Source: Candidatus Anderseniibacteriota bacterium (GTDB lineage Bacteria > Patescibacteriota > Andersenbacteria > UBA10190). Taken from it: a DNA stretch of 64,000 nt. The notes under the pieces are model-generated. The model was given only the letters and a program-made list of their open reading frames with translations, had not been told where the DNA came from and did no database searches. The stretch covers positions 79,851 through 143,850 of the forward strand of contig JACPWO010000002.1 in NCBI GenBank assembly GCA_016197005.1. Reading direction: 5' to 3'. Positions within the stretch are counted from its first letter, which is position 1; the number at the start of each line of letters is the position of its first letter. This document shows positions 24,421 to 64,000 of the stretch, one piece after another. A program made the position numbers and the translations under genes.

Positions 24421-24446
24421 AACACATTAACGTGTGTTATAACCAA

Positions 24447-24476: not shown

Positions 24477-24538
24477 TGACATTATTGGGGATAAGTGGTA
24501 TTGCCAGCAGTTCAATCGATCATTAGCGTAAGTATGAT

Positions 24539-25192: not shown

Positions 25193-25439
25193 TTACTACC
25201 ATTTGTAATATTTCATGATGTTTTTTGAATTGAAGCAAGAGCTGATGCAAGTAAAAAGTGAGTTAGAAAACAAAAAGTGGTCTAACTGTGGATAACTTCC
25301 TCTTGCGTATCATCTCTGTTCACATGACGATACAACGATCTCTTAAAAACGGTTATTTCAGCAGAATTTAAGGGAATTAGCCTTACAAACATAATGCAGA
25401 CGAACACAATAAATAAAATATGGAAGGAGGTGAGTGCAG

Positions 25440-26567: not shown

Positions 26568-26690
26568 CAGCTAGGACGTACGTCACAGCTGAACTAAAAG
26601 TTCACCCGTTTGTGAGCGGGAGGCAGGCCTTAAAACTTGTCTTCCGCCACGAGCGATGGTATATAGAGGAGATTTTTAAAATATTCATGA

Positions 26691-29693: not shown

Positions 29694-29699
29694 TGTGCT

Positions 29700-30611: not shown

Positions 30612-30621
30612 AGATACGGTT

Positions 30622-32306: not shown

Positions 32307-32954
32307 CTATTGTTGTAGCGCTGAATCGATCGAACTTTTGAGAGCAGTAGCTGAGTACGAACCAGTATAATGCTGGTCGTTTATAAAGAGAGTTGGTGTA
32401 CCTCGAATTCCCAGGGCGCGGCCATCAGCAACGTCAGCAGCTACAACATCACGATGAGTATGTTCATCTAAGGCTGTTCGAAATGCTTCCATATTCAATC
32501 CTAATTCCTGGGCATATTTTTCTAGGTCAGCACGCGTCAGGGCCGGTTGACTTTCAAACATCTTGTCATGGTATTCCCAAAACTTTCCTTGTTTTTGTGC
32601 TTCAACGGCAGCTTCAGCTGATAGCTGAGCGTGTTCGTGAAGTTGAGTAAGCGGGAAGTGACGGAAAACGAATTTGACTGACTGATCAGCATATTCTTCC
32701 TTTAGTTGTTTCAAAAGAGGGTGAAGAGATCCGCAGGCAGGACACTGAAAGTCTCCAAATTCGACCACAGTTACTTTAGCGTCTTGAGCACCAAGGACTG
32801 GATCATCTTCTTGTGATAATCGCTCTGGTTGATCGACACTTGGACCAACTTCGCCAGTTTGGGCGGCATTGCGGTTGGTATATAATCCGGCACCAATAAT
32901 GATGCCAACAGTGGCAACAATTACGCCAATAATCACTTTGGTGTCAGTTGTCAT
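32307..32954 (-). CDS. DsbA-like thiol:disulfide oxidoreductase (thioredoxin fold), membrane-anchored
   Basis: CxxC active site FGDFQCPACGSLHP with an N-terminal TM. I start it at MTTDTKVIIG (32954); the longer track ORF would overlap the VKOR gene. Confidence 0.75.
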   Translation of the reverse strand: MTTDTKVIIGVIVATVGIIIGAGLYTNRNAAQTGEVGPSVDQPERLSQEDDPVLGAQDAKVTVVEFGDFQCPACGSLHPLLKQLKEEYADQSVKFVFRHFPLTQLHEHAQLSAEAAVEAQKQGKFWEYHDKMFESQPALTRADLEKYAQELGLNMEAFRTALDEHTHRDVVAADVADGRALGIRGTPTLFINDQHYTGSYSATALKSSIDSALQQ

Positions 32955-33339
32955 GTTGTTTAGGGTGCAGCCATACAATAAAAAAGGCAAGAGTGGCCAA
33001 GACGGCACTGGCGACACACCATTGGCACCAAGCTTCAACCACAAAAGCCTCCAGATACGTAAGATACAAGGACACAATAAAGCCGCTTGCAGTTATAAGC
33101 TTGAGCCACGTTTTTTTCTCTAGCGCTGTAGCGATGCCTAGTGCGGCATAAAACAGAATTCCGTACGCAGCCGTTGGAATACCGAAGTGCGAAGCAAATC
33201 GACTAGCTTGAACTATGTGACAGCCACCATCGTCACCGCATAGGAGCGGCAAGGCGGAGACGTGCGTAATAAACAAGTAACCAGATATGAGTAATCCGGC
33301 AAACGCGACGGTAGCAAGTAAGTATTTTCTTGCAATCAA
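32944..33339 (-). CDS. vitamin K epoxide reductase (VKOR) family protein
   Basis: 4-TM protein with a loop Cys pair LLCGDDGGC and a TM CxxC, AWCQWC. It overlaps the downstream DsbA-like gene by 11 nt. Confidence 0.7.
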   Translation of the reverse strand: MIARKYLLATVAFAGLLISGYLFITHVSALPLLCGDDGGCHIVQASRFASHFGIPTAAYGILFYAALGIATALEKKTWLKLITASGFIVSLYLTYLEAFVVEAWCQWCVASAVLATLAFFIVWLHPKQHDN

Positions 33340-34918: not shown

Positions 34919-35381
34919 ATGCTCGAGTATATGTTACGAATGAAAAATTATCATAGTGAGTTTGCGTTTGCGGAATCCATTCCTGTTTTGTAACGCGAGG
35001 AAAAAACGCATCACCCTCATATGAGTCATGAATATGGGAGATGTATAATCGATCTGCTATCGGTAGGAATTGTTGATAGACGAGTTCGCCACCCGCAACC
35101 ATGATTTCACTTCCAAAACGTCCCGCTGTTTCCAGGGCGTCGGGGATAGAAGGCACAAATTGGACAGTATCGCTGGTAGATGAGAGTTTATTACTCAAAA
35201 CAATAAGAAAGCGATTGTCTAAGAGGTTGGGAAGCGATTCAAATGTTCGGCGACCAATAATAACAGGCTTACCTTCCGTAAGTGTTCGGAATAATTTCAT
35301 TTCCTGTGGCAGATGCCACGGCATTAGGTTGTTTTTACCTATGACGCCGTTTTTGGCGACAGCTGCAATGATTGAAATCAT
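34896..35381 (-). CDS. folA: dihydrofolate reductase
   Basis: MISIIAAVAKNGVIGKNNLMPWHLPQEMKLFRTLTEGKPVIIGRRTFESL; 161 aa. Overlaps glyA by 23 nt. Confidence 0.9.
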   Translation of the reverse strand: MISIIAAVAKNGVIGKNNLMPWHLPQEMKLFRTLTEGKPVIIGRRTFESLPNLLDNRFLIVLSNKLSSTSDTVQFVPSIPDALETAGRFGSEIMVAGGELVYQQFLPIADRLYISHIHDSYEGDAFFPRVTKQEWIPQTQTHYDNFSFVTYTRAYEHAKAA

Positions 35382-40673: not shown

Positions 40674-41408
40674 ATGGAAGAACAACCTCAGTTTAAAAAG
40701 GAAAAGTTTACCGCTCCAATGGCAGTCGTTGTGGCCGGTGCGTTAATTGCAGCTGCATTATATTTCCGACCAGCTGGAAGTCCGACAGGGGTACAACCAG
40801 GAGCAGAAGCCCCTTCTCACTTAACTGAAGAAAAACTCATTGAACATGCGGAAGCAGCTGGTGTCCCAGACGTTGACGCGTTTCAAACGTGTCTAGAAGA
40901 CAAGCAATATGACGGGGAAATAGATGCGGATTTAGCTGATGCTGCCGCGGCCGGAGGAACGGGCACACCATATACAATTTTAATTGGACCAAATGGTGAA
41001 AAAGTCCCAATAGGAGGAGCCCTCCCTTATGAGGCGGTAAAAGCGGAAATAGATAACCTGCTGGCTGGTAAAACCCCGGTTGCTCCGGCTAATCCCAGTC
41101 CGACGCCAGAGATAACCTTTAGAGTAATTGATGATACCGATCACGCTCGTGGACCAGCCGGTGCTCGGATTACGATGCTTGAATACTCAGATATTGAATG
41201 TCCGTACTGTCAGCAATTCCATCCGACGCTCGAACGAGTAATGGAGGAATATCCGAACGATGTCCGTTGGGTATACCGCCATTTCCCACTGGAACAAATT
41301 CATCCACATGCTCGGGAAGCAGCTAATGCTACGGAATGTGCTGCTGTTCAGGGGAAATTCTGGGAACTAACTGACTACCTGTTTACCGAAGCAATTAAAA
41401 AAGGATAA
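40674..41408 (+). CDS. DsbA-like thiol:disulfide oxidoreductase, membrane-anchored
   Basis: N-terminal TM; CxxC site DIECPYCQQFHP; conserved RHFPL as in the other DsbA-like protein. Confidence 0.75.
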   Translation: MEEQPQFKKEKFTAPMAVVVAGALIAAALYFRPAGSPTGVQPGAEAPSHLTEEKLIEHAEAAGVPDVDAFQTCLEDKQYDGEIDADLADAAAAGGTGTPYTILIGPNGEKVPIGGALPYEAVKAEIDNLLAGKTPVAPANPSPTPEITFRVIDDTDHARGPAGARITMLEYSDIECPYCQQFHPTLERVMEEYPNDVRWVYRHFPLEQIHPHAREAANATECAAVQGKFWELTDYLFTEAIKKG

Positions 41409-50303: not shown

Positions 50304-51932
50304 TTAGCCTCGGATAAGGTGTTCTGCAGCGTATTCTTTCGACGCACCAATCTTCTTACCAGGATTAAAGATGTTATTCGGATCAAAAATATTCTTTACT
50401 TCTTCAAATAATTTGTACACTTCTTCACCGTACATTTTTTTCAGATAATGGCTTCTTACTAATCCATCATTATGCTCAGCCGACATTGACCCTTTGTACG
50501 CAAACACAAGGTCATATACTTTCTCAGACAGTTCCGGAATTATAGCCCGCTGTTTTTCATCAGCTAAATCCATAAGAGGAATGATGTGAAAATTTCCGTC
50601 TCCGACGTGTCCGGCAATCGTGTAGAAAATATCATACTGCTTAAGGATTTTTTCCAGTTGCGGCAGAAATTCTGGCAAATGTCGTGGCTGAATAATGAAG
50701 TCATCAATAAAAGGAGCAGTTTTCTTCGTTTTTACTCTCTTACGTAGCAAATTGAAACTTTCACGGCGAATCGTCCAATATTTTTCTGCTTCATTTTCAT
50801 TACGAGTGATACGAGTAGCAGTAACGAGGCTGCGCACTCCTTGTTCGGCAGCACGCACTCGCATGATGATTTCTTTTTCGTCATAACCAGAAAATTCCGC
50901 AATTAAGATAAGTTTAGGAAGACCGCCGGTGAGTATGAGTTTTACTTCTGGAATAAACTGAAGGGCCAGTGAAAAAATCTTAGTTTTCATTTGTTTTAGG
51001 AGCTGTGGAAAGAATTTCATGGCGAGCTTTAACGTATTGTCATCGTATGACTCAAAACTTTCTGGTTGATGCCGTAAAACAGCTGGAATGATTTGAGATA
51101 GGTTGTCGGTACTACGCAAGAACATAATGAGCATGCGCGAATGAGGTTTTGGCTTTATTAACCGAAAAGTAATTTCAGTAATAATGCCAAGTGTTCCTTG
51201 AGAGCCAACCAGCAGTTGTCCTAAATCAAAACGTCCGTCTTTTTCCACATTCCACAGACTATATCCAGTTGAGTTTTTAGAAACTCTCGGAGTCATTTTT
51301 TTAATAAGTTTACGGTTTTTTTCAAGTAAGCTACTGATACGACGGTAAATTTCTCCCTCCCATGTTTGCATCTGTTTCTTTTTCTCAAGCTCTATTGGTG
51401 AAAGTGATCGAAATGTGTATTCATTTCCATCGGCCAGCACCGCCTTAAGGTTTTTCACATACTTTTCTGTTTTGCCATACGACAGTGTTTTCTCGCCACC
51501 AGAATTATTCGCAACCATTCCGCCAACCGTGCACAAACTCTTCGATGCGGGAAACGATGGGAGTAGTACTCCCAATTTTTCCGTTTCTTTTTCAAAGTTG
51601 CGATAGAACAACCCCGGTTGAACTACCGCCTCGTGGTCGTTTATCTGCACGATCTGGTTCATGTGTTTGTTTACATCAACCACCACAGATTCGGTTAACG
51701 CTCCACCGCTCATGTCCGTGCCCCCAGAACGTACAGTCAAAGAAATATTTTTTTCTTGGTTGGCATATTGTACGAGCGCTTGAACGTCCTCAGTATTTTT
51801 GGGGTAGGCAACTGCTTGCGGCACAAGCTCAAATAAGCTGGCATCACGGCTGTACCGTGTCAGCGTATCTAAGTCACCTGCTACTCCTCCTTTTATAACT
51901 GCGTTTAGCGCAGCAACAATACCCTCCGGCAT
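50304..51932 (-). CDS. FAD-linked oxidase (GlcD / D-lactate dehydrogenase-like, PCMH FAD-binding)
   Basis: FAD-binding N-terminal domain with VRSGGTDMSGGAL; 542 aa, with a C-terminal FAD-oxidase domain. Confidence 0.7.
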   Translation of the reverse strand: MPEGIVAALNAVIKGGVAGDLDTLTRYSRDASLFELVPQAVAYPKNTEDVQALVQYANQEKNISLTVRSGGTDMSGGALTESVVVDVNKHMNQIVQINDHEAVVQPGLFYRNFEKETEKLGVLLPSFPASKSLCTVGGMVANNSGGEKTLSYGKTEKYVKNLKAVLADGNEYTFRSLSPIELEKKKQMQTWEGEIYRRISSLLEKNRKLIKKMTPRVSKNSTGYSLWNVEKDGRFDLGQLLVGSQGTLGIITEITFRLIKPKPHSRMLIMFLRSTDNLSQIIPAVLRHQPESFESYDDNTLKLAMKFFPQLLKQMKTKIFSLALQFIPEVKLILTGGLPKLILIAEFSGYDEKEIIMRVRAAEQGVRSLVTATRITRNENEAEKYWTIRRESFNLLRKRVKTKKTAPFIDDFIIQPRHLPEFLPQLEKILKQYDIFYTIAGHVGDGNFHIIPLMDLADEKQRAIIPELSEKVYDLVFAYKGSMSAEHNDGLVRSHYLKKMYGEEVYKLFEEVKNIFDPNNIFNPGKKIGASKEYAAEHLIRG

Positions 51933-51947
51933 AGGGGAATAATAGCA

Positions 51948-51976
51948 TTGATTCGCTTCTCACGCGGGCGTACAAT
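51948..51976 (+). promoter_or_regulatory. sigma70-like promoter TTGATT-17-TACAAT, predicting a leaderless transcript
   Basis: The -10 box ends 7 nt before the ATG at 51984. There is no room for an SD. Confidence 0.4.
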
Positions 51977-51983
51977 TTAACGT

Positions 51984-52505
51984 ATGAAAACAGGCACTAT
52001 AACAGCAGTTGTTGGGGTAGTTATTATCGTAGCTGTAGCTAGTATGTTCGCTTTTCGAACTCCGGCCGAGGCACCAGCAGTAACACCAACTCCAGGATTC
52101 CAGGACGCAACGGCACCAGCATCAGATAGCGGTCAGTTTATTCAGCTGCAGCCGAGCACAACTCCTAATACGTCTCTTTTGCCAAGCGTAAGCCCCGCGG
52201 CTGGAACGACCCAACAGAACACAACTACTGCCGAATCAATTGCCATTTCTATTGATGACACTGGCTTTACTCCTCGCACAGTAAGTATTGCTTCGGGAAC
52301 AACAGTTGTATTTACAAATAATGGACAAGCGAAGCACTGGCCTGCGTCTGATGTTCACCCTACCCATCAAGCCTTACCAGGATTTGATGCTAAGCATGGG
52401 CTAGAAACAGGCGAGACATACTCATTCACATTTATCAAGACGGGTAGCTGGAATATGCACGATCATCTTAACCCCAGTGCTACCGGCATAATTACCGTTC
52501 AATAG
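51984..52505 (+). CDS. secreted or anchored cupredoxin-like domain protein (copper site apparently degenerate)
   Basis: N-terminal TM; Pro/Thr-rich linker; C-terminal beta-sandwich pattern TVSIASGTTVVFTNNG...HW...GETYSFTF...GSWNMHDHLNP...GIITV. This resembles the cupredoxin_1 or EfeO fold, but no Cys ligand is present. Confidence 0.4.
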   Translation: MKTGTITAVVGVVIIVAVASMFAFRTPAEAPAVTPTPGFQDATAPASDSGQFIQLQPSTTPNTSLLPSVSPAAGTTQQNTTTAESIAISIDDTGFTPRTVSIASGTTVVFTNNGQAKHWPASDVHPTHQALPGFDAKHGLETGETYSFTFIKTGSWNMHDHLNPSATGIITVQ

Positions 52506-52538
52506 TCACTTCGTGTCTGCTCGGCAGGAGCAGGCATA

Positions 52539-52547
52539 TGCTATACT
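52539..52547 (+). promoter_or_regulatory. extended -10 element TGcTATACT immediately upstream of pilB
   Basis: TATACT ends 6 nt before the ATG at 52554. No SD. Suggests a leaderless start for the pilus operon. Confidence 0.3.
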
Positions 52548-52553
52548 TTTCGA

Positions 52554-54278
52554 ATGGCGGAAAATACCGGCGTCAAAATCCTTCAGTCGCTAGCCGAGAA
52601 GCAGCTCATTACGTTTGAGCAAGCTAATCAGCTGCGTGGTCAGATTGAAGGCGGCGCCAATTTATACGAACTGTTAGTGGATGGCAAGGTTGTAAACGAA
52701 GACCAATATATGGAGGCGTACGCTGCGGCCGTAGAAATTCCATATGTGAATGTCGGCGAGATGCAGATTCCGAAAGAGATCCTCGATATTGTCCCTGAAT
52801 CCACCGCGCGTGGGCATCGCATTGTCGCGTATGAACAAACCCCCGACCTCGTAAAGGTAGCAATGGCTGATCCAAGTGATCGGCAGATTGTTGAATTCAT
52901 CCGCAAAAAAGTAGATGTACCAGTAGAAGTAGCTATTACTTCGCCTTCGAGTATTCGCAAAGTCTTAGCACAGTATCAAGATACTCTTGAAGCCGAGCTT
53001 TCCAACTTAATTAAGCAAGCTCAAACAGTTACTGGCACGGGAGAGCTGACAAAAGTAGCCGAAGACCTGCCGACAGTTAAAATAACAGAAGCAATTTTGA
53101 AGCACGCTATTCTGCAGGGAGCTTCAGATATACATATTGAACCAACGGAAGACCAGCTCATAGTACGGTATCGAGTTGATGGGCTGCTGCACAATGTTCT
53201 AACGCTCCCGAAAGCGGTGATGGCGGGATTGGTGGCACGTATAAAAATCTTAAGTCGTCTCAAAATTGACGAACATCGTCTGCCTCAGGACGGACGTTTT
53301 AAACTAGAAAGTGATGATTACCAGGTAGCATTCCGTGTTTCAACGCTCCCGGTATTTGATGGCGAAAAAGTTGTTATGCGTTTACTCGATGAATCTGGAC
53401 AAGGACTGAAGCTTGATGATATCGGCATGAACGACAAGGCGCTCAAGGTATTCCGCAAAAATATTAATGAACCGCACGGTATGGTGCTCGTTACTGGCCC
53501 AACTGGTTCTGGTAAAACTACTACGCTCTACGCTGCCATGCGTGAGCTTAACCAGCCAGAAGTAAACATCAGCACCATTGAAGATCCAATTGAATACCGG
53601 ATGGAAAAGATTAATCAGACGCAAGTGCAACCCAAAATTGGACTGAATTTTGCTACGGGTCTGCGCGCTCTCGTTCGTCAAGATCCCGACATTATTATGG
53701 TTGGTGAAATCCGTGACGAAGAAACCGCTTCCTTGGCGGTAAATGCTGCTTTGACTGGACATATGGTTCTTTCCACCTTACACACCAATAGCGCCGCTGG
53801 AGCGGTGCCTCGGATGCTCGATATGAAAGTAGAACCATTTTTGATTGCTACAACTGCTAATGCGCTGCTGGCGCAACGTCTTGTCCGCAAACTCTGTCAA
53901 GAATGTAAGGTCGCCGGAAAAGCAGATAAAACGATTATGGATAGCCTGGCAGCCGCTTTAGATATTGAGCACATGCTCAAAGTGCTTCAGGAACAAGGAG
54001 CAGTAAAAAAGGAAGCTGCTTGGGAGGACATCCCTATTTTCCAACCAAAAGGGTGTCCTAAATGCCAAGATGGTTATCGCGGACGACTGGGTATTTACGA
54101 GATATTTGAATTAAGTCCAGCCATTCAGAAATTAATTACCTCGAACGTTACTTCACAGGATATAGAAACAAAGGCACGGGAAGAGCAGGGAATGGTGACT
54201 ATGATTGAAGATGGGATGATAAAAGTTACCCAAGGTATTACCAGTGTGGAAGAAATTCTTCGAGTCGCTAAAGAATAA
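52554..54278 (+). CDS. pilB: type IV pilus / T2SS assembly ATPase PilB (GspE family)
   Basis: N-terminal T2SE_N domain; Walker A LVTGPTGSGKTTTLYA; Asp box; Walker B; His box; the CxxC...CxxC tetracysteine motif CQEC...CPKC. Confidence 0.9.
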   Translation: MAENTGVKILQSLAEKQLITFEQANQLRGQIEGGANLYELLVDGKVVNEDQYMEAYAAAVEIPYVNVGEMQIPKEILDIVPESTARGHRIVAYEQTPDLVKVAMADPSDRQIVEFIRKKVDVPVEVAITSPSSIRKVLAQYQDTLEAELSNLIKQAQTVTGTGELTKVAEDLPTVKITEAILKHAILQGASDIHIEPTEDQLIVRYRVDGLLHNVLTLPKAVMAGLVARIKILSRLKIDEHRLPQDGRFKLESDDYQVAFRVSTLPVFDGEKVVMRLLDESGQGLKLDDIGMNDKALKVFRKNINEPHGMVLVTGPTGSGKTTTLYAAMRELNQPEVNISTIEDPIEYRMEKINQTQVQPKIGLNFATGLRALVRQDPDIIMVGEIRDEETASLAVNAALTGHMVLSTLHTNSAAGAVPRMLDMKVEPFLIATTANALLAQRLVRKLCQECKVAGKADKTIMDSLAAALDIEHMLKVLQEQGAVKKEAAWEDIPIFQPKGCPKCQDGYRGRLGIYEIFELSPAIQKLITSNVTSQDIETKAREEQGMVTMIEDGMIKVTQGITSVEEILRVAKE

Positions 54279-54292
54279 GATATACTTTATAT

Positions 54293-55510
54293 ATGCCAAT
54301 ATTCTCTTTTGAGGGGCGAAGAGAAGACACTGGAGAAGTTGTGTCCGGAGCACGGGAAGCAGTCTCGCATACGGCGCTCGGGCAAGATCTTCTGTCAGAA
54401 GGAGTTTTACTAACTCGTTTTGAGGAAAAGAAACGGAAAAGTCCGGCCGATTCTATATTTGCGTCTCTCCTGGCCCATGTTCCAGTGCTTGAGCGATTAC
54501 TCTTTGCTCGTTACTTCGCTCTTATGCTTCGAGCGGGATTAGATGTGAAGCGCTCACTGGCTGCCCTGGCTGAACAAACGCGGAGTAAACCAATGAAAGC
54601 GGCGCTGCAGTCGGTCTATCAAGGAATTGAGCGTGGACAGCAGCTGGCCGAAAGTATGGCAGCACATACCAATGTGTTTTCTGAGCTATTTGTTAGTTTC
54701 ATTCGTGTCGGTGAGGCTTCCGGACGTTTACAAGAGTCTTTGGAAATTTTGGCCAAACAGCTACAAAAAGAATTTGAACTCAAGCGTGCTGTCCGGGGTG
54801 GTCTTCTTTATCCAGCCATTATTGTGCTGGCCCTGATTGCCGTTGGAATCGCGATGATGATATTCGTGATTCCAAAGTTAGTAGAAGTATTCGAAGGATT
54901 TGATGTTGAGTTACCGCTCACAACTCGTATTTTGATTACCACGAGTGGTTTTTTCCATCATTACTGGTACCTCGTTATTCTCATTGTCATTATTCTGGTT
55001 GGAGGAAGTTGGGGGCTGCTACGAGTGAAATCAGTGAAAGCATTCATTATGCACTGGATGCTGTATGTGCCAATCATCGGCAATATTATTCAGCGAGTGA
55101 ATCTTGCTCGATTCTCCCGAAATATTAGCTCGCTGCTCGATAGCGGCGTGCCATTCATTGAAACGCTGCAGATATTAGGGGAAAACACCCCCCACCCTTC
55201 CTATGCTGCTGTATTTGCTGGGGCCGCTGATTATGTGAAGCAGGGAAAAGAGTTAAGCGCATATTTATCTCAACATGAGAAACTATTTCCTTCTCTGGTG
55301 ACGAATATTATGAAAGTAGGAGAAGAGACAGGTGAGCTAGCTGCAGTATTACAAGAAGTAGCTATCTTCTATGAAAGTGAAGTAGACCAGACGATGAAGA
55401 ATTTAACTTCGGTTATGGAGCCAGTGCTCATGGTCGTAATTGGTCTCGCCGTTGGTGCTCTGGCTATTTCCATCATCTCCCCAATTTACGGATTGGTGAA
55501 TGTAATTTAA
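54293..55510 (+). CDS. pilC: type IV pilus platform protein PilC (GspF family)
   Basis: 405 aa with two GspF repeats and 3 TM helices; typical FARYFALMLRAGLDVKRSL and LSSLLDSGVPFIETLQIL blocks. Confidence 0.85.
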   Translation: MPIFSFEGRREDTGEVVSGAREAVSHTALGQDLLSEGVLLTRFEEKKRKSPADSIFASLLAHVPVLERLLFARYFALMLRAGLDVKRSLAALAEQTRSKPMKAALQSVYQGIERGQQLAESMAAHTNVFSELFVSFIRVGEASGRLQESLEILAKQLQKEFELKRAVRGGLLYPAIIVLALIAVGIAMMIFVIPKLVEVFEGFDVELPLTTRILITTSGFFHHYWYLVILIVIILVGGSWGLLRVKSVKAFIMHWMLYVPIIGNIIQRVNLARFSRNISSLLDSGVPFIETLQILGENTPHPSYAAVFAGAADYVKQGKELSAYLSQHEKLFPSLVTNIMKVGEETGELAAVLQEVAIFYESEVDQTMKNLTSVMEPVLMVVIGLAVGALAISIISPIYGLVNVI

Positions 55511-55518
55511 GTGCGGCC

Positions 55519-56988
55519 ATGAACGGTAGTCGCGGCTTTACCATTATCGAAATCGTAATAACGACGTTTCTTATTGGTACGGTTGTCGTCGGCGTCTTCG
55601 GTCTTTTCTTGCTATCACTGCGCTCTGCTCAAGAGTCGGAGAGACGAGTAGTAGCAGTGGCACTTGCGAATGAACGAATGGAAATGGTACGGAATCTTCC
55701 TTATGTAAACGTTGGCACGTCTGGTGGTATTCCAACGGGGCCTATTTTGCAGATCGAGACAGTTGCTCGCAATGGCTTAGATTATTTAGTGAAAACAGAC
55801 ATTCGATACGTTGACGATGAATATGATGGAAAGGCTGCTGCGCCAACTGAAGAGGATGATCATATAACCATTTGTCATCGCCCGGGGACTCAATCAGAAA
55901 ACACTCTCACTATTAGTTCGCAAGCTTGGCCGGCTCACCAAGCTCATGGTGACTATCAAGGAGAATGTGGTAATCCTGATGATGGCACGGGAGATGGTGA
56001 CGAATATAACGCAGATTACAAACAGGTTCGTGTTGAAGTGTCATGGACAAGTCCTTCCAACCCGTCTCCCGTTCTCTTTATTACTTACATTGCTCCTCCC
56101 GGCATTGAGGGAGGAGAGTTAGGGGGGACACTGGATTTACAGGTAATTGACGCTGCCGGAGTAGGCGTTCCTAGTGCGCAAGTGGTCTTAATAAATGATG
56201 ATACAAGCCCAGCTATTAACCTGACTACGCAGACAGATAGCGATGGGCGCCTTATTCTTCCGGGGCTGCCGGAAGAGGCTGATTCCTACGCGTTAGCAAT
56301 ATCCAAGGCAGGATATACCAGTGAGCAGACGTATGACTCGTCAGCCAGTTTTGTTCCTGACGCAGATCATGGACACCTTTCCATGATTTTAAAGGCGTTA
56401 ACCAGTAAAACATTTTCAATTGATGAGACGGCTTCACTGATTGTAAATACCAAAGATGCCACGGCAACTGCTGTTCCGGATATTGCATATACCCTCCGTG
56501 GTACCAAGACAATTGGTACTGATGGTAGTGGTAACCCCGTATATGTCCTTGATGAGACTGCGGCAACTAACAGTGCTGGAACTCATACCCATTCGGCGCT
56601 GGTGTGGGATTCATATAACTTTCAAGTAGACGGGGAGACGAGTGGGTATGACATAAAGGAAACGAGCTTGTTGTTACCACTTGTTGTGCTTCCCGGAGAC
56701 GATCTAACCCTGGATGTTACGCTTGTTGAGCATACGCCGCTTTCCTTACACGTCACGGTTGCGAATAGTGAAGGACTTCCAATTGACAATGCCACAGTTA
56801 CACTAACAAAGAACCCAACGTTCACCGAAGAGCAAGGGACAGGAGTTTTGGGACAAGTTTTCTTTGCTGATCTTCCCACTACTGCTACGTACACGCTTAC
56901 TGTTGATGCGCCAGGGTTCACCTCTTCGTCTCAGCAGGTACCAGTTGATGAAAGTGAACGCATTCGAGTTCAACTCTCAACGCCATGA
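55519..56988 (+). CDS. type IV pilin-like protein (class III signal peptide), large
   Basis: N-terminus MNGSRG/FTIIEIVITTFLIGTVVVGVF is a prepilin cleavage/methylation motif (G|FTxIE). 489 aa. Confidence 0.65.
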   Translation: MNGSRGFTIIEIVITTFLIGTVVVGVFGLFLLSLRSAQESERRVVAVALANERMEMVRNLPYVNVGTSGGIPTGPILQIETVARNGLDYLVKTDIRYVDDEYDGKAAAPTEEDDHITICHRPGTQSENTLTISSQAWPAHQAHGDYQGECGNPDDGTGDGDEYNADYKQVRVEVSWTSPSNPSPVLFITYIAPPGIEGGELGGTLDLQVIDAAGVGVPSAQVVLINDDTSPAINLTTQTDSDGRLILPGLPEEADSYALAISKAGYTSEQTYDSSASFVPDADHGHLSMILKALTSKTFSIDETASLIVNTKDATATAVPDIAYTLRGTKTIGTDGSGNPVYVLDETAATNSAGTHTHSALVWDSYNFQVDGETSGYDIKETSLLLPLVVLPGDDLTLDVTLVEHTPLSLHVTVANSEGLPIDNATVTLTKNPTFTEEQGTGVLGQVFFADLPTTATYTLTVDAPGFTSSSQQVPVDESERIRVQLSTP

Positions 56989-57593
56989 AAGGATTTACTG
57001 TTGTTGAGACCGTAGTCGTTTTGGGTTTAAGCTTAATGCTTATAACTGCATTGCTGCGTTTTTTAGTTGCCGGCTATCCACTGGCTTCAGTCACGCTGCT
57101 GCAATCTAATTCAAACGAAACTGCGCGGGTACAGTTAAAACGTATTGCCAAAGAAATGCGGCAGATACGATATGCAGACACCGGCGCCTATCCTTTGGTT
57201 GACATGTTGCCGCAAAAAATGGTGTTTTACGCGAATATCGATACTGATGCGGCTACTGAGCGAGTACGATACGAATTAAATGGGACTGACTTAACTCGTG
57301 CCATATTGGAACCAAGCGGAAATCCTATTACGTATAATGTTGCAAACGAACACGCAACGGTAGTGGCAAGAAATATTCGGAATGGAACTAATCCTATTTT
57401 TGTTTACTACAACGGTGATTATCCGGAGGACACTGTAGCCTTAACGCCCGCCGATGTAACCGACGTAAAATACATTCAGTTTCACTTATTGATAGACGCA
57501 AATCCCGATCGGGAACCGAATGCGATTGAAGTAGCTTCTCAGGTACAACTGCGCAATCTCAAGACGAATCTAGGGCAGACAACTGACCCGTAG
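56985..57593 (+). CDS. type IV pilin-like / pseudopilin protein
   Basis: MKG/FTVVETVVVLGLSLMLI prepilin N-terminus; 202 aa. Overlaps the previous gene by 4 nt. Confidence 0.65.
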   Translation: MKGFTVVETVVVLGLSLMLITALLRFLVAGYPLASVTLLQSNSNETARVQLKRIAKEMRQIRYADTGAYPLVDMLPQKMVFYANIDTDAATERVRYELNGTDLTRAILEPSGNPITYNVANEHATVVARNIRNGTNPIFVYYNGDYPEDTVALTPADVTDVKYIQFHLLIDANPDREPNAIEVASQVQLRNLKTNLGQTTDP

Positions 57594-57605
57594 TATAGTA
57601 AAGAC

Positions 57606-58796
57606 ATGAGACAACAGGAGGGGTTCACGCTTATAGAAGTCTTGGTAGCTGCTTTTCTGTTGGCGGTAGGGGCTGTTGCCGTCACTGGGCTTATTATCCT
57701 AAGCTCCCGTCTTTCATTTGAGTCAGAGCGTAATGCCGTCGCTCAAGGAGTTGTGAATCAATGGATAGAGTATGTTCGCGTGCTCGATTACGACCAGGTT
57801 GCACTCACCGCGGCTGCCCCTGATTCTGGATTATTGACCGACCAAGAAATAAATCAGAATGGACAAAAATATAATCTTTCATTTCGAGTTGAGTTAGAAG
57901 ATGATCCGGGAAATGGTATAAACACGGCGCTTGACGCCACGAATGCCGATTACAAAAAGGTATTTGTTACCGCTACCTGGAATACTGCTGGGGGCGGTAG
58001 TCGTAGTGTTGTTAGCAGTATCATCGTAACTCGTCTCAGTAATCCTATTACGTGCACCTCTGGTAATTACTCGTGCCCCGGCCCCGCTGGAAATAAGAGT
58101 GTTCGCTGTCCGGCTAGTGGGTTTTGTCCAGCCGTTCAGCTTTGTAATCCGGGCGAGCGACAATGTTTTGGTAATACGGTAATCTGTCCATCTGATGGTC
58201 GTTGTCCAGGATCACCCCCCGATCCCGATACGAGCTGCCCGGCCGAAGCATATTTTTGTAGTGACACAACAAGTGGTGGAATTGTCTTGAGTGAATTTTT
58301 CCCTGACCCGGAAGGAACAACTGATGACGATGAATACATTGAAATTACCAATACTGGTAACGGCAGTCTTGATTTAACTGGCTGGAAGCTTGATGACGGA
58401 CCTGGTGGCAGCTCGCCTTACTTCATTCCGCCCGGCACCATTATTCCTCCGGGCGACTACACAACGTTTGATCGCTCGGATACTAATATAGAGCTTGATA
58501 ATAATGGCGACAGTGTTCGTGTCTTTGATCCATATTGGAATAATGTTATTGATGAATCATACGACGAGGCCGTTGAAGGACAGTCATACACCTGGGTGTG
58601 CGATAGTTGTGGTAGTGGCAGTAGTGGTGGGGGTAGTAACGGTGGTGGCAGCAGTGGTGGATATGGTTGGTATCCTCCCTCACCGGGTGGACCGGGACCG
58701 AGCGGAGGCGGGTATGGCTCAGACGATTATTCTGGTTCCGATGATTACGACGGTGACGGGTGCAGCAATCTTAATGAATATTTAGGAAATTGCTAA
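57606..58796 (+). CDS. type IV pilin-like protein with Cys-rich region and C-terminal lamin-tail domain (LTD)
   Basis: MRQQEG/FTLIEVLVAAFLLAV prepilin N-terminus. LTD signature IVLSEFFPDPEG...EYIEITNTGNGSLDLTGWKLDDGPGGSSPYFIPPGTIIPPGDY. C-terminal GSDDYSGSDDYDGDG. Confidence 0.6.
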   Translation: MRQQEGFTLIEVLVAAFLLAVGAVAVTGLIILSSRLSFESERNAVAQGVVNQWIEYVRVLDYDQVALTAAAPDSGLLTDQEINQNGQKYNLSFRVELEDDPGNGINTALDATNADYKKVFVTATWNTAGGGSRSVVSSIIVTRLSNPITCTSGNYSCPGPAGNKSVRCPASGFCPAVQLCNPGERQCFGNTVICPSDGRCPGSPPDPDTSCPAEAYFCSDTTSGGIVLSEFFPDPEGTTDDDEYIEITNTGNGSLDLTGWKLDDGPGGSSPYFIPPGTIIPPGDYTTFDRSDTNIELDNNGDSVRVFDPYWNNVIDESYDEAVEGQSYTWVCDSCGSGSSGGGSNGGGSSGGYGWYPPSPGGPGPSGGGYGSDDYSGSDDYDGDGCSNLNEYLGNC

Positions 58797-60130
58797 TGAA
58801 GTTCTCCTCCTTCAATTCTAAAGTTGGTAGTGCCCTTATAATGGTGACAGTCATTTTTGGTATGTTCGTTGTGATTATGGGAGCAACGACGGCGTATGTG
58901 AATCGTCAATTTAATCGCACGGTCCATGACGAAGCCAGGGAGGCTGCCCTTTACGCAGCCGAAGCCGGTCTCAACTACACTACACAAGCATTAACTGAAG
59001 CGTGGTATAAACCGAATGAGCTTTTAAGTAAGGGAAGTATAGGTATGCCAATTAATATTGATCCTGCCGCAAAAAGTTCTGTGTTGGTATTTTTTGGAAA
59101 AGAACCAACACTTGAAGAAAGCCAGGGACTAAGAGTTGTGTCTAACGGGCTCGCGTTCGGCGGTGAGTGCAGAGCTATTGAAGCTGTTATTCATCGAGCA
59201 TCAAATCAGAACAATGTGTTTAAGATTGCTTACCAAGACATCTTGAGCAAATGCTCAGTCCCGCGGTGTTGGGTAGGTGTCCAAGGAACACGTGACCATA
59301 CTGAAGGACCAAACGGTTCTGTCTATTACTCCTGGGCTTCTTCGGGAACAACCTCATGTTCTTCTGATACTGATGCCAGTGTATCGGGTACATCTGGTTC
59401 ATCGACCTTGGCTGGTAGCAGCTCGGAAGTAGCGGTGACGTGTCAGTGCTCTTTAGGAGGAGAAGTAACCGATTCTATTGCCTGTATACCGGGAGAAACT
59501 GCGTGTGAGCAAGGCAGCAGTGTCTCGTTACCTCCCGCTCCTGTTCCGGGTAGCTCTGATGAACCTGAATCAAATAATTCAGATCAATCGGAGGAGAATG
59601 GGAGCAACGGAACAAATCCCACACCTTCAAGCTCTTCTCCTCCTGACCCAACACCAACATCTTCTGATGATGGCAATGCTAGTGACGATGGTGATGGTGG
59701 AGATAGTGAGAATGAGGGAAATGAGGCTTCAGATGATTATGTTTCACCTACGCCACCTGGCCAGCCAGCTCCAAGTTCAACCCCAGAACCAGAACAGTGC
59801 AGCTACCAACCTTCCAGTTGTCCAGCGGGCACACCACCAAATAGTTCGTGTGTATCATGGGAATGTGACTCTGATATGGATTCAGACGACGATGATAATG
59901 GAGGCGACGGCGGAGACGATAGTGGCTCGTTTATGTGTGTAGCCGACTGTGAGCTTGCCAATGCAGATCCAGTTAGTGGTGAGTGTATTGGTGGCTATCA
60001 AACTACAATTTACTTTGAAGAGGTGCCAACCAGTGGACAAGTGTTAGCTGAGTGTCAAGGGCAACAGCTAGATACTTGTCGGGCCTATCCAGTAACGGAA
60101 CCATGTGGCGATAGCTCTGACGATTATTAA
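58790..60130 (+). CDS. PilX-like minor pilin / pilus assembly protein, Ser/Thr/Pro/Asp-rich
   Basis: N-terminus GSALIMVTVIFGMFVVIMGATTAY followed by AREAALYAAEAGLNY, as in the PilX N-terminal domain. Long low-complexity S/T/P and acidic tracts; many Cys. Confidence 0.45.
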   Translation: MLMKFSSFNSKVGSALIMVTVIFGMFVVIMGATTAYVNRQFNRTVHDEAREAALYAAEAGLNYTTQALTEAWYKPNELLSKGSIGMPINIDPAAKSSVLVFFGKEPTLEESQGLRVVSNGLAFGGECRAIEAVIHRASNQNNVFKIAYQDILSKCSVPRCWVGVQGTRDHTEGPNGSVYYSWASSGTTSCSSDTDASVSGTSGSSTLAGSSSEVAVTCQCSLGGEVTDSIACIPGETACEQGSSVSLPPAPVPGSSDEPESNNSDQSEENGSNGTNPTPSSSSPPDPTPTSSDDGNASDDGDGGDSENEGNEASDDYVSPTPPGQPAPSSTPEPEQCSYQPSSCPAGTPPNSSCVSWECDSDMDSDDDDNGGDGGDDSGSFMCVADCELANADPVSGECIGGYQTTIYFEEVPTSGQVLAECQGQQLDTCRAYPVTEPCGDSSDDY

Positions 60131-60138
60131 CACGTGAT

Positions 60139-62718
60139 ATGAATAAATATTGGATTAAACAAGCAAAAGGATACACCGCAGTTGAATTGGTGATTGCAAT
60201 GGGCATTGCTGGTCTCGTCATTGCGGCTACTTCTTTGTTTATTAGCCGCGGTATTGGCAGTAATAGGCAACAATTTGAGCAAGTACTAACAACGGAAAAT
60301 GCTCGAAAACAATTAAAAACTATTTCGGATACAGTGCGAGACGCGCGGAATCGAGTACAAGATGATTGGCTGCTGCGGGCCGAACCGAATGAAATTATGG
60401 TGGCAGCTAATGTTGATAATGACGCAGAAATTGAGACAGTCCGATATTTTTTGGATGGCAGTGAGCTCAAGCGAGGCGTAACCCAACCAGGCGGCGAGGA
60501 AAAAGTGCGGACAGTCACTCGCGGCGCTCGTAACCTTGAATTACAGGAAAACCTATTCACCTATGCTTCTTCGGAAGGAAATACCCTAGAAGAAGGACAA
60601 GCAAATTCGGCAAATGTTGAACGAATTATTGTTTCGCTGCGCGTTGACAATAATACTGACCAGGATCCTGGAGCGGCTCAACTGCTCGTTGAGCTTACAT
60701 CTCGAGCCGATTCAACGGAAACAGCGCGCATGTGGCCAATATCACTTAATTTTCCTCAGAATCCCGAGGAATGGGACGGAGCAGATGGGCCAGTTGAAGT
60801 GACCATCACAAACCCAGAAACAGGGGAGCAAACCATGACCGAAACTACGATTGCTGCGATTAATGACGGCCGGATGGAAACGTACAGTGGTGGATACTAT
60901 GTGAATCTTAATTATCAATCAACTACAGACGGATCAGATCTTCCGGGTTGGTACACCTGGGCCGGACCAATTTTTATTGGGTCAAGAGATGGGGCAGTTA
61001 TTACGAAAATCGACAAATTTTTGCAAAACGAGCTTTGTTTAGGAAGAAACATGCCAGAACTTCTAACCGGGTGTGAGCGACGGTGGGTAGCGGCTGGAGT
61101 GGAACCAGAACTTTACAAAACCTATATTCCTATTATTTTATTCCGACAAACAAATGGCCAATTAGATTATGTAAGGGATATTTCATACGGCATCGAAAAG
61201 GAAGTCTCACCTACTCCGGAACCATCTGCAACTCCGACCCCACCAGCTGATGACACCACCTGTTTTATAGAAGTTACTGCTCCGAAGAATGGCACTGTCA
61301 AGCCGCCTACTTATAAGTGGGATTTGGCAGTCTATGTGAACGGTGGAAATCCGGACTCAAATAGTAATGAAGTTTATTACTTTGATAATGGTAAATACTT
61401 GGGATCTTCAAGCTTAAATTCCGGTTCCGGCTATGGCCTTAATTCAAACTCGGGGGGTTTTGCTCAGGGTGTAAGTATAAATCCAGCCCCAGGAAATCAC
61501 ACCGTTATTGCTACGCTTAATGCTCCACCGATAAATAGTCCAGGCGGACAGCTGGTTGTGCCGACCACGATGCCTGGAGCCTCAAGTTGTAAATCAGAGC
61601 CCATTACCTTTACGGTGTCGTCGCCGTCTACTCCCACGCCAACTCCAACTGGCAGCGCTGCCTGTACTGATTTTGCTCCGTTTCTATCCATTACCACTAA
61701 TCCGATGTGCATTAACAAGCCACAGCTTTTCTTGCCAGCTGTCATGGAAGATATCAATTTTACCGGCAAAATTGATCCTGGCTTATTGCAATATGTTGGT
61801 ATTACGAGTGTTTCTTTCGTTTCATACAGTGATGGATGCCCACTTCAGCCAGGAGGCCAAGTTTCAGGTCAAAGGCAAAAAAATTGGAATTATACCGGAA
61901 GTAACGTCTACGACGGGCAGCTGGAATATAGCAGTAGCGATCGAACACAAGCCTGTGCTGATAATTTTACGATTAGATTCCAGGTAACTTATGTAAATAA
62001 AGCTACCGGCAAAATCGGAAATGTAACTGCTATTAAGACGTTAGATCCATGTTTTATGGATGCTTGGGGACAACCAACTCCCGCTCCGACCCCTTCCTCA
62101 TCCTGTCCAGTAGCATCAACTCCAACACCTACTCCAACACCTACTTCTAACCCAACTTCTAACCCAACTCCAGCACCAGAAATAGCTAACCCGCCCACTC
62201 TTACCTGGGCAAATCTCGGTCCTGGCTGTTATAACCCGGGAGAGACATTTGTTACGAACTTCACTCTTAAACTCCCGTCGCAAAACACCTACAATGCCGG
62301 GTATATTGGACCAGCTGTTATTCGAGCGGTTGAAGGGTATAGCAGTGCCCCGGGCATTACCATTTACAGCAATGATCCACCCGAACCACAGGAACAAACG
62401 AGCGCTGGTGGTACCTCACCCAATCGACTCACTGATATCACTGCTACAAAAATACACTCCTTAACGAAGCAACAAGACCTTATATATACCGTATCTTTTC
62501 ATGTTAATGAGCTCGTAGATTCAGGAGCAGGGAATACAAGAAACGGTCCCGTTACCATACCGTTTAAAGTGAATTATGATGTAAAGCCCGGTTTGCCCGG
62601 TGGCGACGGTATACTCGAAACTACATCGTCTATTAGTAGATGTTGTCATTACCAACCAGTCCAGTGTCCCAGCGGATCGGCGCCAGGAAGTTTCTGTCAG
62701 GCCTGGGTATGTCCCTAA
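60139..62718 (+). CDS. large pilin-like protein (859 aa) with Thr/Pro-rich linkers
   Basis: MNKYWIKQAKG/YTAVELVIAMGIAGLVIAA prepilin-type N-terminus. Linkers SPTPEPSATPTPPADDTT, SSPSTPTPTPTGSA, PTPAPTPSSSCPVASTPTPTPTPTSNPTSNPTPAPE. Confidence 0.55.
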   Translation: MNKYWIKQAKGYTAVELVIAMGIAGLVIAATSLFISRGIGSNRQQFEQVLTTENARKQLKTISDTVRDARNRVQDDWLLRAEPNEIMVAANVDNDAEIETVRYFLDGSELKRGVTQPGGEEKVRTVTRGARNLELQENLFTYASSEGNTLEEGQANSANVERIIVSLRVDNNTDQDPGAAQLLVELTSRADSTETARMWPISLNFPQNPEEWDGADGPVEVTITNPETGEQTMTETTIAAINDGRMETYSGGYYVNLNYQSTTDGSDLPGWYTWAGPIFIGSRDGAVITKIDKFLQNELCLGRNMPELLTGCERRWVAAGVEPELYKTYIPIILFRQTNGQLDYVRDISYGIEKEVSPTPEPSATPTPPADDTTCFIEVTAPKNGTVKPPTYKWDLAVYVNGGNPDSNSNEVYYFDNGKYLGSSSLNSGSGYGLNSNSGGFAQGVSINPAPGNHTVIATLNAPPINSPGGQLVVPTTMPGASSCKSEPITFTVSSPSTPTPTPTGSAACTDFAPFLSITTNPMCINKPQLFLPAVMEDINFTGKIDPGLLQYVGITSVSFVSYSDGCPLQPGGQVSGQRQKNWNYTGSNVYDGQLEYSSSDRTQACADNFTIRFQVTYVNKATGKIGNVTAIKTLDPCFMDAWGQPTPAPTPSSSCPVASTPTPTPTPTSNPTSNPTPAPEIANPPTLTWANLGPGCYNPGETFVTNFTLKLPSQNTYNAGYIGPAVIRAVEGYSSAPGITIYSNDPPEPQEQTSAGGTSPNRLTDITATKIHSLTKQQDLIYTVSFHVNELVDSGAGNTRNGPVTIPFKVNYDVKPGLPGGDGILETTSSISRCCHYQPVQCPSGSAPGSFCQAWVCP

Positions 62719-62744
62719 AGAAATATTTTCGTTAGTATTTCACG

Positions 62745-64000
62745 ATGGCAACAGGATTAGAAAAACAGATCTGGATATTCCTAGGTTTGCTGGGAGTGGG
62801 ACTTTATTGCCTATTCTTGAACTATCCTAATCAGGTCATATTTGATGAAGTTCATTTTGGAAAATTTGTAACTGCTTACTGTTGCACTGGTGAGCGATTC
62901 TTTGATATTCACCCGCCGCACGCCAAGTTACTCATTGCCGGCGGTGCCAAAATTCTGGGATATACTGGTGGGTTTGATTTTGATCATATTGGAGAATCGT
63001 ATGGGGATATATCGCCGTGGAAGCTGCGAGCGGTACCAGCCTTGGCGGGAGCTCTCCTTCCACTCGTCATCTTTGGAATCTTGCGTGCGGTGGGAGTATC
63101 GCTCTCCTTTTCAATTGTGGGAGCCTTGGCGATTGCTCTCAATAATGCGCTGATTGTGCAGTCGCGGCTTATTGGGTTAGACAGTATGCTTCTCCTATTT
63201 GAGTTCAGTGCCGTTTTGGCGTCAATTCGCGGCATGAAAAAACTGCCCCAGATAGAGTGGAAGTGGTGGGTTGTTGCCGGTGCACTATCTGGGTTAGCTC
63301 TCGGAGTTAAATTTACCGGTCTGGCGGCAATCGCAATAGTCATGTGTATTGTTGTTATTACGCTTGCTGAAGAATTACGACAGCATTCGGTTAGTTCAAT
63401 ACTGTTTTCTCGTTACACGAAAATAGTAGCAACTGTTCTAGCGTCAGCGTTTATTGTGTATGTAGGCGGTTGGTTTCTTCACTTTCAACTTCTTACTAAC
63501 CCTGGATCGGGCGATGCCTGGGGAATACCAACCGGAAATTTTGTTACCGATGTCATTAAGGAACACAAGACTATGCTGGGAGCGAACTATAACCTCACCG
63601 CAACGCATCCGTATGAAAGTAAGTGGTGGCAGTGGCCGGTCATGACCCGCTCGGTATTTTATTGGACGGGTCCTAACGGTGAGTGGATATACTTCTTGGG
63701 AAATCCAATTATTTGGATCGGCTCTTCTTTGATATTTCTGACTGCTCTCTTCTCAGCTGCGCTTAGTGGTTTACGCCACTGGCCCCGAATTGCTTGGATT
63801 TTCCTCGCTGGTTACCTGATTGCATATATTCCACTTATGCGTGTCCCACGAGCACTATTTCTCTATCACTATTTAACGCCACTTCTCTTCGCAATTTTGT
63901 TGGGAGTGTGGTGGCTGGATGCTACACTGTCAGGTGAAACAAAAAAGAAGGCGGCGGTAGGGTTAGGAATTTTATTTGTGCTGGGTTTTGTGGCTATGGC
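62745..64000 (+). CDS. PMT-family (GT39, GT-C fold) protein O-glycosyltransferase, 3'-truncated by the window end
   Basis: I translated frame 0 from the ATG at 62745 by hand. It is absent from the ORF track because no stop occurs before the window end. MATGLEKQIWIFLGLLGVGLYCLFLNYPNQVIFDEVHFGKFVTAYCCTGERFFDIHPPHAKLLIAGG is the canonical PMT N-terminal loop with the DE motif. Later LIVQSRLIGLDSMLL and HPYESKWWQWP also fit. It starts 26 nt after the last pilin-like gene. Confidence 0.8.
   Translation, partial: MATGLEKQIWIFLGLLGVGLYCLFLNYPNQVIFDEVHFGKFVTAYCCTGERFFDIHPPHAKLLIAGGAKILGYTGGFDFDHIGESYGDISPWKLRAVPALAGALLPLVIFGILRAVGVSLSFSIVGALAIALNNALIVQSRLIGLDSMLLLFEFSAVLASIRGMKKLPQIEWKWWVVAGALSGLALGVKFTGLAAIAIVMCIVVITLAEELRQHSVSSILFSRYTKIVATVLASAFIVYVGGWFLHFQLLTNPGSGDAWGIPTGNFVTDVIKEHKTMLGANYNLTATHPYESKWWQWPVMTRSVFYWTGPNGEWIYFLGNPIIWIGSSLIFLTALFSAALSGLRHWPRIAWIFLAGYLIAYIPLMRVPRALFLYHYLTPLLFAILLGVWWLDATLSGETKKKAAVGLGILFVLGFVAM

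Follow-up and report, generated by a model that had tools for sequence, protein, structure and literature searches.

What would a lamin-tail domain (LTD) do on a pilin, and what could it bind there? The question is raised by one gene in a stretch of 64,000 nucleotides from an uncultured, ultrasmall bacterium of Candidatus Andersenbacteria (Patescibacteria, the candidate phyla radiation or CPR), positions 79,851 to 143,850 of contig JACPWO010000002.1, to which we refer throughout as the window. The product of this gene (LTD pilin gene, Table 1) is very probably a modular minor pilin, of the GspI/PilV class, that belongs to a type IV pilus. We take as observed its prepilin signal, its two folds, the pattern and conservation of the cysteines in the stalk between them, and its place in the operon. 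Patescibacteria live in dependence on other cells, and few of their surface machines other than type IV pili have been shown to play a part in attachment to a host; the modules displayed at the pilus tip are therefore a route to host range and its mechanism. An LTD found alone on a pilin, without an enzyme, is also a clean construct for asking what this domain binds.

Two folded modules joined by a cysteine-rich stalk

The boundaries of the open reading frame (ORF) were verified exactly (57606..58796, + strand, 396 aa). At its N terminus there is a leader of six residues ending in Gly; residue +1 is Phe, +5 is Glu, and a hydrophobic helix follows (MRQQEG/FTLIEVLVAAFLLAVGAVAVTGLIIL or MRQQEG/FTLIEVLVAAFLLAVG..., the slash marking the predicted cleavage site). 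Both the Pfam N_methyl model (PF07963, 31.7 bits, cut-off 21.2) and the NCBIfam model TIGR02532 (22.2 bits, cut-off 16.3) recognize it, which bears out the class III prepilin signal proposed in a preliminary description of this DNA, made from the sequence alone.

An AlphaFold2 model, for which an alignment of 19 sequences was the input, is confident for both globular modules, a point in favor of the modular pilin: the predicted local distance difference test (pLDDT) is mostly above 90 for residues 9-144 and 85-93 for residues 224-322. The first of these modules has a fold of the GspI type, in which a small antiparallel sheet packs against the long alpha1 helix. Its top structural matches are pseudopilins of the type II secretion system (T2SS), namely GspI (3ci0_I; score 8.2, 1.9 Å over 79 of 83 residues), XcpV (7.8, 2.4 Å over 83) and EpsI (7.8, 2.3 Å over 82). 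Foldseek returned a Thermus competence pilin (probability 0.87), and a weak fold likeness to TT_C0855 and TTHA1218 was seen as well. With a profile of this module 723 proteins were retrieved, and several are named PilV by their sources. Matches to ComGE and ComGF (13 bits, sub-threshold) were at the level of the N-terminal helix only, and sequence searches of the PDB gave N-terminal helix matches at most.

The second module matches the Pfam LTD model (PF00932) with 60.9 bits, almost twice the cut-off of 34.3 (E value 1.8e-16, residues 221-311, profile positions 3-99 of 109). The LTD that had been read from the sequence is thus significant in the profile search, and the structure prediction agrees with it, giving a confident lamin-type Ig-like beta-sandwich that matches the Ig-like domain of Lamin B1 (score 9.3, 2.1 Å over 87 residues); Foldseek found lamin Ig folds with a probability of 1.0. 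Alignment with canonical bacterial LTD repeats extends the domain to about residue 361 and shows that their core motifs are kept (NEF.P.P, E[YW]IE..N, L.GW.LDD, LNN.GD.V.L and W...YPPSPG), the last of them, which closes the domain, coming after a Gly/Ser-rich insertion of about 20 residues. Among InterPro entries we take IPR001322 to be that of the LTD.

Since an identical NCBI protein bears the name 'lamin tail domain-containing protein' (Candidatus Andersenbacteria metagenome-assembled genome GCA_016178385.1, contig JACOTL010000006.1, 492 kb), the LTD annotation was already known; the name leaves out the pilin context. Two Logan assemblies also hold the identical protein.

Between the two folds lies a stretch without any Pfam match that contains 10 of the exactly 14 cysteines of the protein (residues 150, 157, 168, 174, 180, 187, 194, 200, 211 and 218, with spacings Cx5C, Cx6C and Cx10C), the remaining four being 332/335 and 386/396. 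The preliminary description was right in seeing a Cys-rich module here, although its count (more than 14) and its CxxxxC arrays have to be corrected. All 10 stalk cysteines are conserved in P0002, the closest relative (see below), so the pattern is not due to chance, and the stalk is shared in part by two further relatives, P0085 and P0158. The two DsbA-like genes and the VKOR gene noticed earlier in the window are real, as judged by their Pfam matches (Table 1). That they could form the disulfides of the LTD pilin is a plausible link, and the VKOR and DsbA-like genes at 32307..33339 are a candidate disulfide-forming pair. As listed, the VKOR ORF and the longest DsbA-like ORF overlap by 134 nt; the real start of the latter (- strand) is probably further downstream, which would leave an adjacent VKOR-DsbA pair. 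A disulfide-rich stalk together with these genes fits a reliance on extracytoplasmic oxidative folding for surface proteins.

A different cysteine motif appears in two neighbors of the LTD pilin, the PilX/GspK-like protein (446 aa) and the 859-aa protein. It has four cysteines within about 23 residues, is nearly identical between the two, and in a six-frame regular-expression scan of the window was seen in these two genes only. We considered whether the stalk is the same module and rejected it: the strict pattern matched the neighbors only, the beginning of the stalk (C-x6-CPGP...) being loosely similar. The shared motif could be a small disulfide module or a contact between subunits.

The pilus locus

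The locus around the LTD pilin gene is one for type IV pilus assembly and includes a block of minor-pilin genes. The genes follow each other on one strand in the order pilB, pilC, 489-aa paralogue, 202-aa gene, LTD pilin, PilX/GspK-like and 859-aa genes, with gaps of 8-14 bp or overlaps, and the likely ATG of the PilX/GspK-like gene, which is also the start called in the NCBI contig L001, overlaps the stop codon of the LTD pilin (TAATG). Four other pilin-like genes adjoin the LTD pilin gene. Two loci that extend beyond the window, one in an NCBI contig (L001, 21 kb) and one in a Logan assembly (L002), continue after the PMT gene with a 460-aa PilX-like gene, PilM (PilM_2, 94 bits), weak PilN (20.2 bits) and PilO/T2SSM-like matches, and a second PilM-like gene. 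Counts in a promoter and terminator scan of 51800-64000 were no higher than in shuffled sequences, for which reason operon boundaries cannot be claimed.

The 489-aa paralogue is 35% identical to the LTD pilin over residues 1-104 (BLASTP, E value 5e-16), so this one locus may supply PilV-like carriers with two different heads. In the pilin module of this paralogue, an insertion spanning approximately residues 105-165 carries the motif ITICHRPG...AHQAHGDYQGEC; two cysteines only are present (119 and 150).

Some observations on the other genes of the locus deserve mention. The PilX/GspK-like protein has 18 cysteines and an isoelectric point (pI) of 4.05. A segment of 217 bp within its gene (59901-60117, + strand) is present in the window and in L002 and missing from L001; the NCBI version of the protein loses its last 72 codons (with 6 Cys), gains a short out-of-frame tail and ends at 374 aa. 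The junction has no microhomology, and the difference stems either from an artefact of assembly or from variation of a tip protein within the population. The PMT gene (62745-64000, continued at 14923-16245 of L001) stands between the minor-pilin block and the PilX-like, pilM and pilN genes. Together with the long Ser/Thr/Pro-rich linkers of the 859-aa and 446-aa proteins, it suggests O-glycosylation of pilus subunits, its product being a candidate pilin glycosyltransferase. Directly upstream of pilB, on the same strand, there is a gene for a cupredoxin-like protein of 173 aa (51984-52505, + strand; PF13473, 29.7 bits).

Table 1. Coordinates of the LTD pilin gene, its modules, the pilus locus and the disulfide-related genes of the window.
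Feature	Position	Strand	Description and evidence
LTD pilin gene	57606..58796	+	396 aa; ORF call; Pfam N_methyl and LTD both above cut-offs
Leader MRQQEG, residues 1-6	57606..57623	+	Sequence; PF07963, TIGR02532; cleavage after Gly6 predicted
Pilin module, residues 7-149, GspI/PilV class	57624..58052	+	N-terminal helix modelled at 9-58, plus four-stranded sheet
Cys/Pro/Gly-rich stalk, residues 150-222	58053..58271	+	10 Cys, 5-10 residues apart; at most 5 disulfides predicted
LTD, residues 223-361	58272..58688	+	Gly/Ser-rich loop insertion at ~336-354 precedes closing W...YPPSPG
Acidic C-terminal tail, residues 362-396	58689..58793	+	SDDY repeats; terminal Cx9C loop finishing at C-terminal Cys
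PilB-type assembly ATPase (T2SSE with MshEN N-domain)	52554..54278	+	T2SSE 446.6 bits, MshEN 54.5 bits
PilC-type platform protein	54293..55510	+	T2SSF 188.2 bits
PilV-like modular pilin, 489 aa, two CarboxypepD_reg domains	55519..56988	+	PF13620 73.2 bits, two stretches
Pilin-like protein, 202 aa, G/FTVVE signal	56985..57593	+	Motif scan; family matches sub-threshold
PilX/GspK-like Cys-rich acidic protein, 446 aa	58796..60130	+	GspK model, N-terminal, 17.2 bits, weak
4-Cys motif of 446-aa PilX-like protein	59798-59866	+	Residues 337-359, CSYQPSSCPAGTPPNSSCVSWEC
Pilin-like protein, 859 aa, G/YTAVE; S/T/P-rich linkers, C-terminal 4-Cys motif	60139..62718	+	N_methyl 18.6 bits, sub-threshold; 16 Cys
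4-Cys motif of 859-aa pilin-like protein	62644-62712	+	Residues 836-858, CHYQPVQCPSGSAPGSFCQAWVC
PMT-family O-mannosyltransferase gene, cut by window end	62745..64000	+	Full gene in L001/L002: PF02366 131.3 bits, PF16192 104.1 bits
VKOR	32944-33339	-	PF07884 73.2 bits
DsbA-like thioredoxin next to VKOR	32307-33077 (longest ORF)	-	PF13462 110.5 bits, PF01323 74.3 bits
Second DsbA-like protein	40674..41408	+	PF13462 67.1 bits, PF01323 55.0 bits

Relatives and distribution

When 1.84 billion representative proteins were searched in full with HMMER, 8,129 matched, almost all of them multi-LTD proteins that align to the LTD alone. Among the best 150 of these, a prepilin motif and an LTD are found together in P0002 only; a pilin that has one LTD and an unrelated pilin module would stand too far down among the 8,129 to appear. 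P0002 (381 aa) is the only full-length match, 63% (BLASTP) to 66% (HMMER, MAFFT) identical, and its identity by module is 87% for the leader and helix, 63% for the pilin core, 67% for the stalk, 61% for the LTD and 51% for the tail, of which the SDDY repeats and the terminal Cys are shared. As every module and all 10 stalk cysteines are kept, the fusion is conserved in the one close relative available, and we have rejected a chance or artefactual origin.

Two other relatives lack the LTD. P0085 (195 aa) consists of the pilin module and a shortened stalk and then ends, while P0158 (874 aa) continues after the pilin module and part of the stalk into a large Cys-rich repeat region in place of the LTD; the gene of the latter is the next one after a pilC with 72% identity to that of the window. 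The preservation of the pilin module and part of the stalk with other C termini fits head-swapping on a constant carrier. Among the best 120 of the 723 proteins retrieved with the pilin-module profile, the LTD appears in P0002 only and PF13620 in about 12, which are from Patescibacteria where a source is named. Together, these relatives fit a constant carrier (pilin, or pilin and stalk) with interchangeable heads. Close relatives appear to be very rare in the collections searched, with one other LTD-bearing cluster and the two relatives without LTD. A scan of genome contigs with the pilin alignment gave, among the matches listed, generic PilV-like N termini only (26-56% identity), a scan of metagenome contigs with the stalk and LTD gave one weak LTD match and nothing close, and a word-indexed search with residues 1-225 returned P0002 and one short pilin only.

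Heads that differ among relatives (LTD, Cys-rich repeats or none) might also be expected if the LTD had no specific ligand and were a spacer, a shield or a variable decoration, for example an acidic, glycosylated and antigenically variable cap that would shelter the tip or keep phages from adsorbing. The indel in the PilX-like neighbor between assemblies of the same population, the PMT glycosyltransferase in the locus, and the low-complexity Gly/Ser and SDDY stretches could all be accommodated by such a cap. However, between the LTD pilin and P0002 the LTD and the pilin core are conserved to the same degree (61% and 63%), the canonical core motifs are kept, and the modular pilins that have been studied are adhesins (PMC8179133, PMC11623550), so that we consider a head without a ligand very unlikely.

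The acidic SDDY motifs recur at the C termini of the LTD pilin (GSDDYSGSDDYDGDG, 58700-58793), of P0002 (TSDDYYGSDDYC) and of the PilX-like neighbor (GDSSDDY, 60100-60130). They resemble tyrosine-sulfation sites, and a protein of the Sulfotransfer_2 family is encoded at 354-1202 (+ strand, 30.8 bits), but a link between the two is pure speculation.

A putative binding head at the pilus tip

In the mechanism that we propose, a prepilin peptidase (PilD) encoded elsewhere would remove the six-residue leader, and the pilin module would assemble with other minor pilins, by analogy with GspI in the GspI-J-K tip complex, into a priming complex whose final place is the pilus tip. DsbA and VKOR of this genome would oxidise the stalk, forming up to five disulfides, and the stalk would hold the LTD off the filament as a ligand-binding head. 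The 489-aa paralogue, with its two CarboxypepD_reg domains, would provide a second, different head on the same tip. We think that display at the tip is moderately probable, and for the whole chain, up to a tip-displayed binding head, the balance is tipped slightly in favor.

Several points weigh against this proposal. The sequence models for the class are sub-threshold (PilV, TIGR02523, matching the first 56 residues with 30.7 bits against a cut-off of 52.2; GspI, TIGR01707, with 14.8 against 44.35), so the assignment to GspI/PilV leans on the predicted fold. In the AlphaFold2 model the pLDDT is below 50 for residues 145-223 and 323-396, that is for the stalk and the tail, and a rigid stalk stapled by disulfides is a guess. 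Among the scanned ORFs of the 64-kb window there is no Peptidase_A24 (prepilin peptidase) match, and neither these ORFs nor the 21 kb of L001 contain a major pilin or a PilT gene; with these genes not found in the window, leader processing and filament type are what we infer. The partners of the supposed tip complex are weakly classified: the GspK model matches the 446-aa protein at the N terminus only (17.2 bits, cut-off 130), and the single-sequence AlphaFold2 model of the 202-aa neighbor (pLDDT 41) is unusable, a GspJ/PilW identity being not assignable. An I-J-K-like complex is thus a putative one. The evidence from conservation is thin because only two LTD-bearing clusters were found. Finally, the role of prokaryotic LTDs is not settled (PMC6085458), and the ligand of this one is putative.

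Could the machine be a short, non-extended filament instead, a pseudopilus whose LTD attaches to the membrane or wall of the cell itself and so positions or stabilises the apparatus? After all, the pilin module is structurally most similar to T2SS pseudopilins, PilT and a major pilin are missing as just described, and a role in bringing proteins to membrane-associated structures has been suggested for prokaryotic LTDs (Mans et al. 2004, as cited in PMC6085458). Yet the absence of pilT and pilA from 64 kb says little when the NCBI contig alone has 492 kb, and PilM with weak PilN/PilO-like matches is typical of type IV pili. Patescibacteria do build real surface pili (PMC11623550), and the very large modular pilins of the locus (489, 446 and 859 aa), with Ig-like or carbohydrate-binding-like domains, fit an outward display better. 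An envelope anchor appears quite improbable.

If the LTD is indeed a head at the tip, what does it bind? The preliminary description had suggested a link either to DNA uptake or to adhesion to a host. The first of these options is the weaker one, and nothing found here speaks for it directly: over the LTD segment the net charge comes to about -20.5, with only 3 Lys/Arg, the pI of the whole protein is 4.05 (the median for proteins of the window is 6.0), and no com genes (ComEA, ComEC, DprA) were seen among the window ORFs scanned. Known DNA-receptor pilins bind DNA through electropositive surfaces or motifs. A direct electrostatic binding of DNA is unlikely with such a charge, and a GRxR-type motif was not seen in the sequence. 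Neither is this LTD alone in its acidity, since 580 LTD segments from the top LTD matches have a mean charge of -10.7 (-20 or lower in 1.7%, positive in 0.5%), suggesting that the fold is generally not electropositive.

What speaks for a role in DNA capture is guilt by association. In this role, the LTD at the tip would bind extracellular DNA, which retraction would bring in for uptake or nucleotide scavenging, as with competence minor-pilin receptors. LTDs occur on extracellular nucleases of the ExeM, NucH and Xds type and on haloarchaeal ComEC-like metallo-beta-lactamase proteins (PMC6085458, PMC5118699, PMC8289736, PMC4486849), and one is carried by Hvo_1477, which is linked to extracellular DNA metabolism. 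Patescibacteria are without full nucleotide synthesis, and several are naturally competent (PMC11623550). The experimental evidence is divided, in that ExeM without its LTD had a lower activity in vitro but degraded DNA almost normally in vivo (PMC6085458), and mutants of the T4P-2 type IV pilus of TM7x were as competent as the wild type (PMC11623550). Considering also the charge and the missing com genes, we regard DNA capture as unlikely, and the more specific version of an LTD that serves a patescibacterial uptake pilus as receptor for extracellular DNA or nucleoprotein, perhaps through bridging divalent cations, as quite unlikely. If true, it would be the first defined function for prokaryotic LTDs, would account for their fusions to nucleases and ComEC-like proteins, and would show how ultrasmall bacteria that are auxotrophic for nucleotides capture DNA.

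For the tip-displayed head, then, the extreme acidity of the LTD makes a ligand other than naked DNA more likely; putative candidates, possibly with bound cations, are a component on the surface of a host or of a partner cell and a matrix polymer (glycan, protein or polymer bridged by cations). That the ligand is such an adhesion target is a tentative view, to which we would give a little less than an even chance.

Other features of the window

Six genes in a row without Pfam match (173, 240, 217, 377, 1000 and 303 aa) are found at 23058-32304 (+ strand). Two of their products are extremely acidic (pI about 4.05-4.07), and a subtilase gene (Peptidase_S8, 168.5 bits) follows directly, so this run may be another surface-protein cluster. 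At 35378-37054 (- strand), beside dihydrofolate reductase and serine hydroxymethyltransferase genes, a 558-aa ORF has two Thy1 (ThyX) matches. The usual length of ThyX is about half of this, and the two matches, together with the roughly double length, suggest a duplicated or fused flavin-dependent thymidylate synthase.

Comparison with known systems

Our finding refines known biology, since pilins with grafted domains are established, the pair of domains is catalogued and the LTD is annotated at NCBI. Modular pilins have been defined as proteins that combine the IPR012902 motif with a domain not specific to pilus biology; 1,219 of them, in 264 architectures, are known, and it has been argued that they are probably exposed at the tip (Raynaud et al., 2021, PMC8179133). 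The LTD pilin, with an N_methyl motif and an LTD, fits this definition. In Dataset S1 of the same work the combination IPR012902-IPR001322 is listed for 6 proteins and its GspH-containing variant IPR012902-IPR013545-IPR001322 for one, while the architecture of the 489-aa neighbor (IPR012902-PF13620) is the third commonest, with 66 proteins (PMC8179133). In a full-text literature search that combined 'lamin tail domain' with 'pilin', no study of a protein of this kind came up. With the pair already catalogued, the conserved stalk of 10 cysteines is the one distinctive feature of the LTD pilin.

With GspI, XcpV and EpsI the LTD pilin shares the predicted fold of its carrier, but it has about 250 C-terminal residues that are missing from GspI and PilV, and it scores below the cut-offs of the GspI and PilV families. 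Like ExeM of Shewanella, the Xds and NucH nucleases and the haloarchaeal ComEC-like proteins and Hvo_1477, it has PF00932 on a secreted or envelope protein; unlike in the nucleases, the domain sits on a pilin without any catalytic domain. PilA2 and ComZ of Thermus thermophilus are also minor pilins thought to act at the tip, and ComZ carries a large extra module. In contrast to ComZ and the other DNA-receptor pilins (ComP, FimT, VC0858/VC0859), the LTD pilin is highly acidic, and homology to the DNA-binding parts of those proteins was not seen.

There are parallels among modular pilins too. PilB (pilin and vWA) and PilC (pilin and lectin) of Streptococcus sanguinis have, like the LTD pilin, a class III signal, a small pilin module and a grafted domain, and modular pilins in general are minor pilins encoded with the pilus machinery and predicted to be displayed at the tip; the vWA module of PilB has been shown to be an adhesin (PMC8179133). 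The LTD pilin differs from them in the grafted domain, in a linker of about 70 residues with 10 cysteines rather than a short loop, in a GspI/PilV-like carrier, and in belonging to a patescibacterium. Minor pilins that carry C-terminal accessory domains have a share in the host binding of Saccharibacteria, for which binding of glycans has been proposed (PMC11623550). PilX1 and PilX2 of Nanosynbacter lyticus TM7x, proposed as tip adhesins for host binding in pili where pilin glycosylation is suspected, are likewise minor pilins of a patescibacterial type IV pilus and have large accessory domains at the C terminus (PMC11623550). Their domains are, however, a beta-jelly-roll and a beta-propeller on pilins of the PilX-like class, in a different phylum-level lineage, whereas here an LTD is grafted on a GspI/PilV-like carrier.

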